Shown here: piece after piece, positions 9,353 to 18,372 of the stretch | How the letters are laid out: every line of letters begins with the position of its first letter | Position numbering within the stretch: the first letter of the stretch is position 1 | Assembly (NCBI GenBank): GCA_045534265.1 | Contig: JAZSJH010000005.1 | Coordinates: 86,234-150,233 of the forward strand | Source of the DNA: Clostridia bacterium | GTDB taxonomy: Bacteria > Bacillota > Clostridia > Christensenellales > UBA1242 | Length of the DNA stretch: 64,000 nt | Direction of reading: 5' to 3' | The notes under the pieces: model-generated | Databases searched by the model: none | What the model was told of the DNA's origin: nothing | What the model saw: the letters and a program-made list of their open reading frames with translations, nothing else | Translations under genes and position numbers: made by a program

Positions 9353-9438
9353 TGGTAGCGGTGGTCGGGGTCGAACCGACACTCAGTTGCCTGAATCAGA
9401 TTTTGAGTCTGACGCGTCTGCCATTTCGCCACACCGCC
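9353..9438 (-). tRNA. tRNA-Leu (anticodon CAA)
   Basis: Reverse complement folds as a cloverleaf: acceptor GGCGGTG/CACCGCT, anticodon stem TCAGA/TCTGA, loop CTCAAAA, long variable arm, T-arm GTCGG-TTCGACC-CCGAC, encoded CCA. 86 nt. Confidence 0.9.
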
Positions 9439-13365: not shown

Positions 13366-13430
13366 AGGTGTAAGGATAGGTGTGTCTTGTATAAGTCATA
13401 CCAATATTGTGGACAAAGGAGAAAATATAT

Positions 13431-14678
13431 ATGGCACTAGTTCCAGCAAAATGTACCCAATGTGGCGCTTCTATTGAAGTTGATAAAACTCAAGAAGCGG
13501 GCATTTGCCCATCTTGCGGTACAGCATTTATTACCGAAAAAGTAATAAAAAATTATAACACCTTTAATGTAGACAATTCCGTTAATATTTATCTTGGCGG
13601 AAAGGGTGATAGCAAAAAAGAAGAAAGAAATGACGCAATAAGAGGTCTTATTGTTTCGCTAGATTATACTGATAAGGTAGATAGTTATAAGAGAATTAAA
13701 AAAATATTAGACAAATATCCAGGCTCAGCCGAAGCTCACTATTCTTGCGCTTTAGCGATAGCTGAGCTTATGACAAGAGATATGACCAAAGACACATACT
13801 TTGGGGAAATGCCGGATTATGAGATGTACCTTGACGAGGTAGACGGCAAAGATGTTTATATCAAAATATCTTATCCGATAGGGCTTATCGACAAAGCAAA
13901 GAAACTAGCAAAAAATGAAAAAGAAAAACTAGAAGTACTTCAAGCAGAGCAAGAATTTTACCAAATAATTACTTGCAAACTACATAAGTTATACCTTGGC
14001 ACATCAAAAGCTGATGAATCAAAAAGCCCAGAAACTGCACAAAATATTGTAAAAGAAGCAAACGAAAGAATGGACGAAAATCCTAGCAAAAAAATAAAAT
14101 TTGACCCGTTTTTCTGGTTTTTGAATCCTTGTGGTAAGTATAGTTTTGAATTTATTAATCTATTTAATGATATTGCAATAATTTTAATTCCTTTCTTTAT
14201 CGTAGCTATGTGTATACCTGTAGCAAGAGAGTGGCTACTTGCTAGATGGTTTTTGTTTGGCATAATAGCACTTGTTTGTCTTTTTGGACTTTATATGTTC
14301 TTTAGTTGCCTAAAAGATGAGATTAGTCATTTAATGCTTCACAATTCAAAAGCTTTGAGAAATGCAGATGCTGAGTATGCAAAAGATTATAATAGCATAA
14401 TCGAAAATGTCGAATTTAGAGAAGATAAGTATTGGTATGCTTTGGTGCTTGGGGTTGAAGGCTCTGTTAAACTTTATGAAGTTTTGAGACGACTTGAAGA
14501 AGATATCAAGAAAAAGAAACTAAATGTCACTGATGTAGATTGGAAATTTGTTTATGAACAATCATATTGCATTATGGAAAATAGAGGCTTAAGTTGGCAT
14601 GATGAGAAAATACTAGATATTATCGAAGAAAACATTAAAAAATATAACTTAGAAAAAATCTTGCCTAAAAAGAAATAA
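13431..14678 (+). CDS. zinc-ribbon membrane protein, paralog A
   Basis: AAGGAG RBS then ATG at 13431 (track start 13407 is a TTG). N-terminal CxxC...CxxC ribbon (CTQCG...CPSCG), helical region, TM helices, C-terminal domain. Paralogous to 29666..30931. Confidence 0.7.
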   Translation: MALVPAKCTQCGASIEVDKTQEAGICPSCGTAFITEKVIKNYNTFNVDNSVNIYLGGKGDSKKEERNDAIRGLIVSLDYTDKVDSYKRIKKILDKYPGSAEAHYSCALAIAELMTRDMTKDTYFGEMPDYEMYLDEVDGKDVYIKISYPIGLIDKAKKLAKNEKEKLEVLQAEQEFYQIITCKLHKLYLGTSKADESKSPETAQNIVKEANERMDENPSKKIKFDPFFWFLNPCGKYSFEFINLFNDIAIILIPFFIVAMCIPVAREWLLARWFLFGIIALVCLFGLYMFFSCLKDEISHLMLHNSKALRNADAEYAKDYNSIIENVEFREDKYWYALVLGVEGSVKLYEVLRRLEEDIKKKKLNVTDVDWKFVYEQSYCIMENRGLSWHDEKILDIIEENIKKYNLEKILPKKK

Positions 14679-14806: not shown

Positions 14807-15361
14807 TTATTTTTTTGACATAGCGACTTTCATTAATTTTTGGATTCCGTCATAAGTTACATCTTTTGATGTTAGATTGTATTTTGCAACAAAAGAGTAG
14901 ATGTCGTCAACGGATACACTATCATTTGCTTTTGAGTCGATTTCTACTTCCATAAGGTCGCCTAAGTTTTTGACAGAGTCAAAGTCAAAATGGAAGTTGT
15001 CAAGATGATATGAAACTCTTTCTTTGTCGATTACCATTTGAATTTCAAAACCTAGAGCAAAAAGTATCTTTTCCATTTGGTCTTTTGATTCAATCTCTGT
15101 TTCGTATTCATCACAATAAATAGGTGTAGCTTCTCTGTGAATTTTTTTGTAGCAAAGCACGGATTTGCCGTTTTGTTCTCTAATTCTTAAACACTCCATA
15201 GTTTCGCCGTCTTTTTCAAATTCAGCAAAGTTTGGTATATAGTAAGTGTCTATTTGGTGAGATTGTTTGCCTTTTGTAGCTAATTTTTCAAGGTCGGCGA
15301 TAATCTTGGCTTTGGTGTCGTTATTTATCAAAAATTTTAGTTCGATTTCTTTGTCTTGCAT
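14807..15361 (-). CDS. CYTH-domain protein (class IV adenylate cyclase / triphosphate tunnel metalloenzyme family)
   Basis: N-terminal EIELKF (ExExK) motif and typical ~180-aa size. Confidence 0.75.
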   Translation of the reverse strand: MQDKEIELKFLINNDTKAKIIADLEKLATKGKQSHQIDTYYIPNFAEFEKDGETMECLRIREQNGKSVLCYKKIHREATPIYCDEYETEIESKDQMEKILFALGFEIQMVIDKERVSYHLDNFHFDFDSVKNLGDLMEVEIDSKANDSVSVDDIYSFVAKYNLTSKDVTYDGIQKLMKVAMSKK

Positions 15362-15449: not shown

Positions 15450-15480
15450 AAAAAAAAGACAGGGATTAGATTTCCTTGTC
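15450..15480 (-). terminator. weak hairpin plus U8 overlapping the RT stop codon
   Basis: Minus-strand GACAAGG...CCCTGTC (one mismatch) followed by 8 U (plus-strand A-run 15450-15457). Confidence 0.4.
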
Positions 15481-16686
15481 CTTTTCGTATTCTTTGAACT
15501 TGTAATATTCATTTACTAGTGATTTGTAGCCAAGCTCTTTTAGTGTGTTGTATCTTACGTTATAGTTTTGTTTGCAGTGTCTGCCAGTGGACAAGAATCT
15601 TAGATATTGAATTAAGTAGTTATCAATAATTTTTAGTCCATTGCTTGTTGTTATCATAGGGAAAAACCACCTAGACCAAGTAAGTTCGTTGGCGTGGCTA
15701 TCTTCAAAGAATTTGCGGTTGAAAACCCTTAACATTACTTTGATAACCTTTTCGGTTGTTGCGGATTTTTTGATTTTCCAGCGGTATAGGGCGTGGGCTT
15801 TTCTTTTGATTTTGGCTTTTAGTTTCATTATTGTCACTTGTGACAAATCAATAGTTTTGTCGCAGTATTCAATACCAAGAAAATTCCAAGGGGTATGTGG
15901 CTCAAAGATACTTTCTTTGTCGGGGTTAACCACTAAATCTTTGTCTTTGATTACTTTGTTTATATATCTTCTATATTCTTCTAACTTTTCTTTGGTTTCG
16001 GCAAAGACAATCACGTCATCAGAATATCTTGCATATGGGATATTTTGGCTGTAAAAGTATAGGTCCAAATCTCTAAGGTATACATTAGCAAAAAAAGTCG
16101 ATAGAGAAGTGCCCGCCATAGCGCCACGTTTTTCTTTGATTATTTCGTCGTCAAATATAGCCTTATCTACGTGCAAAAACTTGTCAAAAAACCCTACAAG
16201 TTTTGGGTCGTCGTGCAAAAAGTCTTTTAAGATAGGCATAAGTTTGTCGATATTGATACTATTAAAGTAGTTTGAAATATCAAGCTTATAGCAATACATA
16301 TTTTCGATATTTTTTCGGTTAACTATTGTTTCAACGGCTCTTTTTACGCCAAATGATTTTCGGAAAGAAAAGCAATTGGCGCTCATTTTGTAGTCGTACT
16401 TGTATAGGCAGTATGAAATGATTTTGAGTACCATACTTTCGGCTTCTGGGAATTTGTATATGGTACGCTTTTTTGTGCTGCCGCTTTTGTTGATTAGTTT
16501 TTTGGTTGGCAAACTAAACTCAAAGTCATTACTTTTAAGTTTTGCTACTGTATCTTTGTACTTTTTACCTTCGATAAAATCTGTCAAAAATGCTTCATCT
16601 TTTTTTGTAAGATGGGCTTTTTCTTTTTTGTAGTTTAGGTATTCTTGCCAAATATTATCATCAGTTATTTTATCTAAAATACTCAT
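15466..16686 (-). CDS. reverse transcriptase, stand-alone (407 aa), unclassified retron/UG/DGR-like type
   Basis: RT motifs KLDISNYFNSI, GTSLSTFFANVYL, YARYSDDVIVF (YxDD box), NPDK, NFLG. The ATG at 16686 follows GGAGAA. The track extension to 16884 has no RBS and a non-protein-like sequence. Confidence 0.85.
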   Translation of the reverse strand: MSILDKITDDNIWQEYLNYKKEKAHLTKKDEAFLTDFIEGKKYKDTVAKLKSNDFEFSLPTKKLINKSGSTKKRTIYKFPEAESMVLKIISYCLYKYDYKMSANCFSFRKSFGVKRAVETIVNRKNIENMYCYKLDISNYFNSINIDKLMPILKDFLHDDPKLVGFFDKFLHVDKAIFDDEIIKEKRGAMAGTSLSTFFANVYLRDLDLYFYSQNIPYARYSDDVIVFAETKEKLEEYRRYINKVIKDKDLVVNPDKESIFEPHTPWNFLGIEYCDKTIDLSQVTIMKLKAKIKRKAHALYRWKIKKSATTEKVIKVMLRVFNRKFFEDSHANELTWSRWFFPMITTSNGLKIIDNYLIQYLRFLSTGRHCKQNYNVRYNTLKELGYKSLVNEYYKFKEYEKDKEI

Positions 16687-16703
16687 ATTTTCTCCATAAA
16701 AAA

Positions 16704-16713
16704 AGAAAGGAAA
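16704..16713 (-). repeat. 3' arm (TTTCCTTTCT on the transcript) of the long-range inverted repeat
   Basis: Perfect complement of 16827-16836. Abuts the RT Shine-Dalgarno. Confidence 0.7.
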
Positions 16714-16826
16714 ATGCTTTGAAATCACATTTATGTGATACAAGACTGAACATACAACTGTTACCTGCAAAACATATAATATGTTGTATGCTTCGCCCTT
16801 CGCAGGTGCAAAATTTACTTTTTGCC

Positions 16827-16836
16827 TTTCCTTTCT
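16827..16836 (-). repeat. 5' arm (AGAAAGGAAA on the transcript) of the long-range inverted repeat
   Basis: Perfect complement of 16704-16713. Begins about 1-2 nt after the predicted TSS. Confidence 0.7.
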
Positions 16837-16843
16837 AAATATT

Positions 16844-16872
16844 ATTTTAGCACTTTTTAGCATAAATGTCAA
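16844..16872 (-). promoter_or_regulatory. promoter TTGACA-17-TAAAAT for the leader and RT
   Basis: On the minus strand, TTGACA at 16872-16867, a 17-nt spacer, TAAAAT at 16849-16844. Confidence 0.55.
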
Positions 16873-16983: not shown

Positions 16984-18372
16984 TTATTGTTCTGGAGATA
17001 GGTCTTTAGAGTAGTCGTGAAGAGTAATCTTTCCGTCTGGAGAAACCTTATCTTGTTTTCTTATGTCGCTAGGAAGAACAAGAGTTTTGTCGCTTACTTC
17101 TACATATAGTTCTTTGTCGATATATGCAGGAGTTTGAGCGCCAGGTTTGCCAACATACAACTCATCTGGGTTTGGAGCAAGCTCTTCTTCAGACAATGTT
17201 TGTTTGATTGACTTGATTTGCTCTTCAAAGTGGTTTTTGATTATTTCGTATGTCGCAGGAGAAGAGAATGTTTCGTCAGCAAATGCCTCTAATGTTTCTT
17301 TATCTTCAAAGTACATAGCTCCGTCTGGGAAATATGAATCCATTTGTTTGCCGTACCTATCCGCTCTCATATAGTTTGCAATCGGTACGTACATAATGTT
17401 GTTTCTTTGACAGAACGCTTCAAAGTGGTCTGCAAACTGATATTTTCTAAGGTGGGTAGGGCAAGTTTGAGTAAAGATGCCATTGCCGCCTAGAGTTAAA
17501 GCTTTTATAGATGGCCCTGTTGTTCTAATTGTATGGTCGCCTGGTTTTTGAAGTAATTTTGGAGTTGTAACAACTGCTCTTGTAGAGCCTGCTTGTATTG
17601 TTCCAAAGCCATCATTTAGGCTTTCAACTGTAGCTGAATATCCGTGTGGGTCCATTAGTCTATCTCTCATGCTATATACGTGAGTTTCAGCTCCAGTTGG
17701 ATCGGCGTAAGCTATATTTGGAAGGCCTTTTGTAGTCAAGATTTCGCCGTTTGCGCCACGCATTAGGTCTTCGTGTACAGAGTTTGGAAAATAAGTAGGA
17801 CGCTCAATGTTTAGAAGTCCAGCTTCTTGTCCTGCCATATAAAGTACTAGTTTTGTGTTGGCAGCTTGTACGCTATTGCCTTCGTCACAAATAATAGAGA
17901 ATAGACAAGTTCTGTTTGTTTCTTTATCAAAACCAATAAGTCTTATTACATTGCCTTCTTTATAAAAAGGTACAAGTGGTGTGTCTTTTTGTGTTCTCTC
18001 CCACAATCTTCTGTTAGAGATAGGGAAGGCATTTTTGATGTTCTTTTTTTGTTTAGGATAACCCTGTGGCATATCGCCAAAAGTATATCCTTTCGGTACT
18101 GATATCAAGTCAACTGTTGGTCTTGAAAATCTTTGTTTTATAACTTCGTCTGCAATAGCTGCTACTGCTACGCTGTTGCTTTCTAGTAGTTGTCTAAATT
18201 CGGTTTGTTCTCTTGTCTTTGGAACTCTCAAAAGTGTATCACTTCTTCCAGACTCCATCAAAGAATCATAATATCTTCTCAAAGCACCAGCTAATGCCAT
18301 ATTACCATTTGAGAGTTGTTGTATTAATTGTTCGATATTGTTTCTTTCGTTTGACAAAATAATTCCCTCCAT
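16984..18372 (-). CDS. conserved-looking hypothetical protein (462 aa), family not recognised
   Basis: Long clean ORF with its own promoter and terminator. The true start may be the TTG at 18357, because GGAGG lies inside codons 1-3 of the ATG-initiated ORF, 8 nt upstream of that TTG. Confidence 0.7.
   Translation of the reverse strand: MEGIILSNERNNIEQLIQQLSNGNMALAGALRRYYDSLMESGRSDTLLRVPKTREQTEFRQLLESNSVAVAAIADEVIKQRFSRPTVDLISVPKGYTFGDMPQGYPKQKKNIKNAFPISNRRLWERTQKDTPLVPFYKEGNVIRLIGFDKETNRTCLFSIICDEGNSVQAANTKLVLYMAGQEAGLLNIERPTYFPNSVHEDLMRGANGEILTTKGLPNIAYADPTGAETHVYSMRDRLMDPHGYSATVESLNDGFGTIQAGSTRAVVTTPKLLQKPGDHTIRTTGPSIKALTLGGNGIFTQTCPTHLRKYQFADHFEAFCQRNNIMYVPIANYMRADRYGKQMDSYFPDGAMYFEDKETLEAFADETFSSPATYEIIKNHFEEQIKSIKQTLSEEELAPNPDELYVGKPGAQTPAYIDKELYVEVSDKTLVLPSDIRKQDKVSPDGKITLHDYSKDLSPEQ

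Follow-up and report, generated by a model that had tools for sequence, protein, structure and literature searches.

A UG26 reverse transcriptase and an extended RT-5 RNA in a minimal, partner-less locus of a Clostridia bacterium

Class 2 reverse transcriptases and the UG26 locus

The three class 2 UG/Abi reverse transcriptase (RT) systems studied so far have each revealed an unexpected form of DNA synthesis: gene synthesis, homopolymers, and telomerase-like repeats. DRT2 (UG2) consists of an RT and an RNA, and its rolling-circle complementary DNA (cDNA) encodes the Neo protein. DRT9 (UG28) is likewise built of RT and RNA only and makes poly-dA from a poly-U template, with C-terminal tyrosines as primers (PMC12483538), whereas DRT10 (UG17) combines an RT with a ~143-nucleotide (nt) RNA and SLATT and produces telomerase-like tandem-repeat cDNA (10.1101/2025.10.16.682844). 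Within class 2, DRT9 and DRT10 are thus precedents for repetitive cDNA that is copied from an RNA and primed by protein (PMC12483538; 10.1101/2025.10.16.682844), and the DRT10 RNA is closed by a basal stem that is needed for RNA stability (10.64898/2026.04.29.721553). Mestre et al. 2022 defined nine class 2 groups, UG26 among them; for UG26 they listed 35 members, found a COG2852/YcjD-like protein beside 9 of the 35, reported no RNA, and left the function open (PMC9226505). RT-5, in turn, is one of nineteen RT-associated RNA motifs described by Weinberg et al. 2017, many of which were speculated to be parts of retrons (PMC5737381). A search of the literature gave no publication in which RT-5 and UG26 are connected or either is studied experimentally. 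Here, we describe a locus in a 64,000-nt stretch of a Clostridia bacterium genome (GCA_045534265.1, contig JAZSJH010000005.1, positions 86,234 to 150,233; hereafter the window), where a UG26 RT gene lies on the minus strand directly behind an RT-5 RNA. Both RT and RNA are already catalogued, and the locus is a further member of two families that belong together. What we add is the link between UG26 and RT-5, a covariation-backed structure that includes a closing helix and a 5' hairpin, and a partner-less subclade with its own promoter.

The RT matches the PADLOC RT_UG26 profile end to end (E 4.2e-161, 534 bits, profile positions 1-397 of 398), and the next groups follow at UG4 6e-33 (112 bits), UG27 2e-31, UG17/DRT10 1.8e-23, and Drt9 3.9e-23. 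By profile, it is a member of UG26 and so of class 2 of UG/Abi, the class that also holds DRT2, DRT9, and DRT10. In its length of ~400 amino acids (aa) and its lack of extra domains, it resembles the UG26 group as described; it differs from most UG26 members in lacking the COG2852 partner and in having its own promoter. The noncoding leader in front of it (16710-16811) matches Rfam RF03026 (RT-5 RNA; release 15) with 83.4 bits against a gathering score of 45.7. As in RF03026, all model positions (1-104 of 104) are matched above threshold upstream of an RT gene, and the match ends 24 nt 5' of the RT start codon. On folding, the leader reaches -40 kcal/mol (z = -4.5), and none of 200 shuffles was as stable. 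A first-pass annotation, made from the window sequence without database searches, had recognized the RT and its structured leader and called the lineage unassigned; it can now be replaced by RT_UG26 for the protein and RF03026 for the leader.

To place the pair in a wider context, we drew on a one-genome-per-species scan that gave at least 599 pattern matches, at least 567 of them encoding an RT relative, and fetched the best 80. The relatives listed belong to Clostridia, Bacilli, Lachnospiraceae, Oscillospiraceae, Propionibacteriaceae, Bifidobacteriaceae, Coriobacteriales, and Bacteroidales, mostly as gut and rumen metagenome bins, and the loci span four phyla (Clostridia, Bacilli, Actinobacteria, and Bacteroidales among them). 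Locating the RNA ends by regular expressions and duplex anchoring proved too noisy, and an nhmmer profile and a covariance model were used instead. Of 82 loci, 81 give exactly one RNA copy with the nhmmer profile, in every case on the RT strand and 5' of the RT gene; the sole locus without a copy is cut off inside the RT gene. A covariance model of the full structure gives one full-length match in each of the 70 non-identical loci (70/70), and the RT-5 threshold set by Rfam itself is passed in all 11 diverse loci compared with it. In these alignments, a conserved, covarying RNA accompanies the UG26 RT wherever upstream sequence is available, so that one refuting condition named by the first-pass annotation, homologous loci without a conserved or covarying leader, does not apply (81 of 82 loci; compensatory changes in 41 of 44 pairs). 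Compared with the published description of UG26, the RNA is found wherever upstream sequence exists, and a partner gene is present in 62 of 81 loci rather than 9 of 35.

The features of the locus are as follows, in window coordinates.

16844..16872, minus strand: sigma-70-type promoter (-35 TTGACA at 16872-16867, 17-nt spacer, TG-n-TAAAAT extended -10 at 16849-16844; score 11/12)
16697..16836, minus strand: whole noncoding RNA (ncRNA), RT-5 extended at both ends, with P1, P1a, pseudoknot, P2/P2a, P3, conserved junction, and U-run
16827..16836, minus strand: P1 5' arm AGAAAGGAAA, all purine, pairing with 16713-16704
16808..16825, minus strand: P1a hairpin GCAAAA-AGUAAA-UUUUGC (98.8% of cells paired, 4/4 modelled pairs covary, 70 loci)
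16801..16807, minus strand: pseudoknot 5' strand ACCUGCG, pairing with 16769-16763
16742..16799, minus strand: P2 domain, with outer stem 16799-16794 with 16747-16742 and 8-base-pair (bp) inner stem 16791-16784 with 16757-16750
16774-16771 with 16762-16759, minus strand: P2a stem UGUU/AACA, 4 bp (93.8% of cells paired, 4/4 pairs covary)
16724..16739, minus strand: P3 hairpin AUCACA-UAAA-UGUGAU (92.9% of cells paired, 5/5 pairs covary, 70 loci)
16714..16723, minus strand: single-stranded junction between P3 and P1, with conserved UUCAAA at 16723-16718 and variable linker GCAU
16713-16704, minus strand: P1 3' arm TTTCCTTTCT, forming the 10-bp closing helix with 16836-16827
16697..16713, minus strand: P1 3' arm UUUCCUUUCU (16713-16704), U-run (16703-16698), and trailing A (16697)
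16695-16692, minus strand: Shine-Dalgarno GGAG of the RT
15466..16686, minus strand: UG26 RT, 406 aa plus stop, catalytic YSDD, no extra domains
15450..15480, minus strand: terminator-like hairpin (15480-15458) and U8 (15457-15450), overlapping the RT stop codon
16975-16944: terminator-like site of the upstream gene (13 pairs and T-run)
15411-15382: promoter-like site of the downstream CYTH gene

Set beside the characterized class 2 systems, the locus resembles DRT2 in its two-component layout with the RNA upstream of the RT, but it has no conserved open frame and its DRT2 profile score is far under the cut-off. With DRT9, it shares the two-component layout, a related fold (template-modelling (TM) score 0.66), a conserved tyrosine pair near the C terminus, and a U-rich RNA tract. 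However, the Drt9 profile matches only at E 3.9e-23 and the window RT is ~90 aa shorter; moreover, the U-run follows the closing helix in the manner of a terminator and is missing in actinobacterial members, whereas the poly-U of DRT9 is universally conserved. The similarity to DRT10 lies in a class 2 RT, an RNA of similar size closed by a basal stem, and a single-stranded loop after a stem-loop (P3) that could mark a template boundary. Unlike DRT10, the window RT matches the UG17 profile only at E 1.8e-23, no SLATT was found among the neighbours, no covarying A-B-A' repeat surrounds the junction, and the RNA contains a pseudoknot.

Structure and covariation of the RNA

The RNA comprises five helices and a pseudoknot, and its secondary structure is supported across the 70-locus alignment, in which 92.1% of pair cells hold a standard pair, compared with 45-51% when partners are slid by 1-3 columns and 72% in column shuffles. 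Compensatory double changes occur in 41 of the 44 pairs, and none of 500 shuffles reaches any of the observed measures. RNAalifold, run on an unfitted MAFFT alignment, recovers P1a, P2, and P2a independently. Every motif and helix coordinate given by the first-pass annotation was exact on re-check of the sequence, so that its near-consensus promoter, 10-bp closing helix, pseudoknot, and ATCACA/TGTGAT hairpin (16739-16724) all stand where it had put them. All helices covary, its closing helix and pseudoknot included. Two smaller elements that it listed, an AACAT/ATGTT hairpin and a GCGAAG-G-GCGAAG tandem, are present in the window and are not conserved in the relatives; in place of the hairpin, the conserved element is P2a.

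The closing helix P1 has 94% of its cells paired and compensatory changes in 9 of 10 pairs. The pseudoknot joins ACCTGC (16807-16802) to GCAGGT (16768-16763) and, counted over 16807-16801 with 16769-16763, has 98.3% of its cells paired and compensatory changes in 6 of 7 pairs; because the pseudoknot was left out of the covariance model used for aligning, its covariation is no effect of alignment fitting. Its 3' strand (16769-16763) is held in the P2a loop, UUGCAGGU. Within P2, the arms CATACAAC (16790-16783) and GTTGTATG (16758-16751) pair as the inner stem, in which 94.6% of cells are paired and 7 of 8 pairs show compensatory change, and the wobble pair G16791.U16750 is invariant, being G.U in 70 of 70 loci. 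Conserved unpaired bases include an invariant A16792, an invariant GU (16741-16740) 5' of P3, and the UUCAAA of the junction (16723-16718), whose columns are 87-100% conserved in 61 non-redundant loci. The junction is a candidate template or site of contact with the RT.

The RF03026 model begins inside P1a, so that the 5' half of this hairpin and the 5' arm of P1 fall outside it. The closing helix, the ~140-nt extent, and the link to UG26 are therefore not captured in that family, and the aligned loci indicate that the RT-5 RNA is larger and more closed than catalogued. Our own covariance model (R1) scores 132 bits over 16689-16845, as the single match in the window.

The two arms of P1 differ strikingly in composition. 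Over the 70 loci, which come from four phyla, purines make up 96.6% of the 5' arm and pyrimidines 96.6% of the 3' arm, compared with a purine share of ~50% in the other long stems and 69% in P1a, and P1 covariation is nearly all A-U to G-C. A plain structural helix would have no need of this asymmetry. The last U of the P1 3' arm and the U-run together make seven U in a row, and arm and run (16713-16698) amount to an uninterrupted stretch of 16 pyrimidines. In 46 of the 70 loci, T occupies at least 7 of the 9 positions behind P1; the run is absent from high-GC actinobacterial loci. The U-run is probably the 3' end, or an attenuating terminator, of the RNA.

Transcription unit, reverse transcriptase, and accessory genes

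Read along the minus strand, the locus consists of the promoter, a ~150-nt noncoding stretch, the Shine-Dalgarno sequence, a 406-codon open reading frame (ORF), and a hairpin with U8 over the stop codon. From the promoter, a transcription start is predicted at ~16837-16836, the first base of helix P1. A promoter whose -10 element ends 6-9 nt before the first P1 base is found in 12 of 18 partner-less loci and in 1 of 52 loci with a partner; in the upstream sequences inspected, loci with a partner gene have its stop codon just 5' of P1. The hairpin at the RT stop folds at -12.3 kcal/mol (z = -3.2) and contains one A.C mismatch, because of which the pattern scan listed only the mirror site on the plus strand. 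The first-pass annotation had described the RT as transcriptionally insulated, and its own promoter (11/12), the hairpin and U8, the terminator-like site of the upstream gene, and the promoter-like site of the CYTH gene agree with that description. The complete minimal form (promoter, ~140-nt RNA, 406-aa RT, and terminator) measures roughly 1.45 kb.

Pfam recognizes RVT_1 only in the RT and no endonuclease domain, in line with the earlier observation that a maturase/endonuclease domain is lacking, and no curated NCBIfam model among those for group II intron maturase, retron St85, Drt2, and Drt3a comes near its cut-off. An AlphaFold2 model built with 107 homologues has a mean confidence score (pLDDT) of 92.4. 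Its nearest solved folds are the GsI-IIC group II intron RT (TM 0.75), G2L4 (0.68), DRT9 (0.66), and DRT2 (0.53); among these, G2L4 is an RT that acts in DNA repair. The window RT is thus compact and resembles group II intron RTs in its fold. In the family alignment, the catalytic YSDD lies within the invariant columns R220-D224. The UG26 family also has an invariant G-x-M-A-G (region of residues 187-201 of the window RT), where most RTs have P-Q-G in motif 4. A conserved SLVNEYY is present at the C terminus of UG26 RTs (residues 389-395), with E393 nearly invariant, and by analogy its Glu-Tyr-Tyr (393-395) is a candidate primer for DNA synthesis. Homology of this motif to the tyrosine motif of DRT9 is no more than a lead, as the profile alignment stops at residue 294.

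Compared with its two closest relatives (86% and 83% protein identity), the RT has ratios of nonsynonymous to synonymous substitution (dN/dS) of 0.08 and 0.07, with dS >1, and by these ratios it is under strong purifying selection. The RNA is 92% and 98% identical to those of loci L001 and L081 while the synonymous sites of the adjoining RT are saturated. We compared the gene context of the window by way of the 83%-identical relative (P0004). Locus L081 has the same neighbourhood, namely a metal repressor, a P-type ATPase, a fast-evolving protein (433 or 462 aa), the RNA-RT pair, and then a sugar epimerase/dehydratase; L001 has the same 462-aa-type gene upstream, and its contig ends just past the RT. 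Given the low dN/dS, the conserved RNA, and the conserved neighbourhood, the module here seems to be inherited vertically and kept by selection.

Of 81 loci, 62 have a ~170-aa ORF that ends just 5' of the RNA (L004-L080; for example, L041:2467-2982 and L016:5037-5855). In this protein, a low-complexity linker lies between a conserved N-terminal MGFLDKL and a C-terminal domain that closes with GYVxxRI. Because 17 of 23 partner proteins match the PADLOC profile RTasCOG2852, we identify this partner as the accessory protein of Mestre et al. It has no match in Pfam, and a profile search against solved structures gave nothing significant. No acidic catalytic residue is invariant in the alignment of 23 partner sequences, so the partner may not be an active nuclease. 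A search for it in every frame of the window gave no match, and none was found in the 1.5 kb upstream of the RNA in the 17 other partner-less loci. The term stand-alone, used of the RT in the first-pass annotation, thus holds for the partner-less subclade, to which the window and its closest relatives belong, and not for the family. In locus L087 (3466-5923; P0066), partner and RNA occur together with an RT that carries a C-terminal alpha/beta hydrolase fusion (residues ~418-630), and an RT with a C-terminal alpha/beta-hydrolase domain is also found in P0076. Across the loci, the pattern is one of a constant RT-RNA core with exchangeable accessory parts, and the COG2852-type protein, in some members joined by the fused alpha/beta hydrolase, is a likely effector.

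Neither gene next to the window RT can be regarded as its partner. Both the CYTH-domain gene and the 462-aa gene were considered for this role and rejected, as neither is conserved beside UG26 in other loci, and the CYTH gene is absent from the syntenic locus L081. The CYTH-domain gene lies just downstream of the RT (14807-15361, minus strand) and narrowly passes the NCBIfam model for class IV adenylate cyclase (CyaB; 58.6 bits against a cut-off of 57.95). The 462-aa protein encoded upstream (16984-18372, minus strand) has no match in Pfam, NCBIfam, or PADLOC. With the syntenic protein of L081 it shares only 38% identity, compared with 83% for the adjoining RT, and by this measure it evolves fast.

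Proposed mechanism and alternative explanations

With moderate confidence, we favour the view that the locus is a UG26 two-component module of RT and ncRNA in which the RNA would act as both scaffold and template for RT-made cDNA. The dedicated promoter is positioned for a start at the first base of the ~140-nt RNA, which folds into a closed, pseudoknotted structure made up of P1, P1a, the P2/P2a loop pairing back to the strand after P1a, and P3. The U-run after P1 would probably end or attenuate most transcripts. The RNA would then build up as a separate species, and the RT would be made at a low level from read-through transcripts, whose ribosome-binding site follows directly on the run. A large excess of RNA over RT mRNA has been reported for DRT2 and DRT9, and a transcript that ends at the U-run with some read-through agrees with that excess. 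The RT would then bind the RNA as a scaffold and copy a short internal segment into DNA, probably repeatedly by analogy with DRT2, DRT9, and DRT10, with synthesis probably primed by the RT protein itself. The best candidates for the template would be the UUCAAA junction after P3 and the all-pyrimidine tract of the P1 3' arm and U-run. As neither partner nor hydrolase is present here, the DNA product may itself be active, as in DRT9, or a factor encoded elsewhere may contribute. The first-pass annotation had proposed an RT with a cis-encoded structured RNA of the retron or DRT2/DRT9 kind; the class 2 layout of RT and RNA fits the locus, and membership in the retrons is not supported.

More tentatively, UG26 and the RT-5 RNA together may constitute a mechanistically new class 2 system whose product is unlike the three known kinds, with the partner-less subclade as a minimal, effector-free form. 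On that joint reading, the RT may, for example, copy the P1 3' arm and U-run into DNA made of purines only, or make a short repeat from the UUCAAA junction, with the C-terminal tyrosines as primers. The purine/pyrimidine asymmetry of P1 may then be a functional signature rather than a by-product, and the minimal form, kept vertically in a housekeeping neighbourhood, may not serve defence. The naturally minimal form of ~1.45 kb could be synthesized and tested directly; if nothing new follows, the locus is one more annotated member of a catalogued family.

Several observations weigh against a cDNA-producing module, and in particular against one that acts in defence. In the searchable literature, no cDNA, RNA-seq, or phenotype data were found for any UG26 member. 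A template was sought by three tests, for a DRT2-type frame, a DRT10-type repeat, and a DRT9-type poly-U, and none was identified. An A-B-A' template of the DRT10 type was rejected because the bases before and after UUCAAA score 3.51 within a locus and 3.50 between loci, and a universal poly-U template of the DRT9 type because the U-run is absent from the actinobacterial loci L016, L019, L020, and L034. The idea of priming by C-terminal tyrosines is a resemblance to the DRT9 peptide IMNPQSLNYDYE in a region beyond the end of the profile alignment. None of 10 neighbours (4 from the window and 6 from diverse relatives, a small sample) matches a PADLOC defence profile, and the neighbours of UG26 differ from locus to locus. 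In three related genomes, the locus occupies a syntenic place on the chromosome, flanked by a copper-ATPase operon and a sugar epimerase gene, and UG26 is rare on viral contigs, with four divergent members among 2.9 million. Finally, Mestre et al. rated UG26 "inconclusive" for defence, and a non-defensive role was predicted for UG4 and UG27, the groups nearest to it in profile score (PMC9226505). A defence role for the module, the default guess from its family, is plausible by analogy only.

In one alternative, the particle of RT and RNA is the same but works for the host and not against viruses, for instance in DNA repair or some other housekeeping role, with the COG2852 (Vsr/YcjD-like) partner acting on DNA. 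The absence of defence genes near the locus, the chromosomal position kept in three related genomes, the strong purifying selection on the RT, the rarity of UG26 on viral contigs, the lack of a clear defence signal for UG26 in the survey of Mestre et al. (and of any for UG4 and UG27), and a fold closest to group II intron-like RTs including G2L4 are all consistent with it. However, every class 2 UG/Abi group tested so far has proved antiviral, the sample of neighbours is small, and the patchy spread over four phyla with exchange of accessory parts (partner, hydrolase fusion, or none) is typical of defence systems. We regard a host function as rather unlikely. It is distinctly improbable that the leader is only a cis-acting regulatory element, that is, an RT-binding autoregulatory 5' untranslated region with an attenuating terminator that is never copied into DNA. 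P1 and the U-run do stand immediately before the ribosome-binding site of the RT, as for an attenuator, and no template was identified, but five helices, a pseudoknot, and invariant junction bases conserved across phyla exceed what a simple attenuator would need. Several relatives have the RNA 90-380 nt from the RT start, a poor fit to control of the ribosome-binding site, and the class 2 relatives studied so far use the neighbouring RNA as their template.

The remaining alternatives would assign the module to a known kind of retroelement. In a retron-like element, P1 would represent the a1/a2 repeats, and the adjoining guanosine would prime a branched RNA-DNA molecule (msDNA). A long-range helix does join the ends of the RNA, a G begins P1a in 68 of 70 loci, and Weinberg et al. 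speculated that many RT motifs are retron parts. That G (G16825) is, however, base-paired in P1a and replaced by A in 2 of 70 loci; the RT scores 55.4 bits against a cut-off of 235 for NF038233, and ~E 1e-17 with PADLOC retron RT models compared with 1e-161 for UG26; the first-pass annotation had seen no VTG motif; and no retron-type effector is present, all of which makes a retron very doubtful. We attach even less weight to a DRT2-type system, in which rolling-circle copying of the RNA would give a repeat encoding an endless reading frame. Joining of the RNA ends by P1 is the geometry used for DRT2 template jumping, and the enclosed region of ~110 nt is similar in size to the DRT2 template. 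Yet stop-free frames, sought linear and circularized on both strands in the 70 loci, show no excess over dinucleotide shuffles (for the P1-enclosed region, sense 0.94 observed versus 0.79 expected and antisense 0.63 versus 0.74), and the endless ORF was rejected on this ground. Enclosed lengths fall evenly into the three classes modulo 3 (21/26/23), no circular open frame exists in the window copy, and the NCBIfam Drt2 model NF041746 gives 54.8 bits against a cut-off of 390. Scarcely credible, finally, is a remnant of a group II intron or diversity-generating retroelement (DGR), which would account for the nearest solved fold (TM 0.75) and the partial match to TIGR04416. The latter reaches only 100.3 bits against a cut-off of 300, and profile placement puts the RT in UG26 and not among group II intron maturases, a placement that the first-pass annotation had named as a refutation. 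Rfam finds no intron RNA family anywhere in the window, the endonuclease domain is absent, and no template/variable repeat pairs of a DGR were found within 15 kb; between 9000 and 24000 a single direct repeat occurs, two 40-nt copies with 70% identity, which is consistent with chance.

Some minor observations concern the divergent relatives and the rest of the window. A search for the RT-5 RNA at the four UG26 members on viral contigs detected none. Three of these RTs (L082:6001-7173, L083:6001-7176, and L084:55-1230), which are 29-34% identical, lie in tightly packed operons with no RT-5-like RNA upstream, and L082 has a ~300-nt noncoding stretch downstream that might hold a different RNA. 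In the window, a 423-aa protein (13407-14678, plus strand) has an N-terminal zinc-ribbon-like CxxC...CxxC and hydrophobic segments and matches no defence profile. The sole other above-threshold Rfam match in the window is a tRNA gene at 9356-9438 (minus strand).

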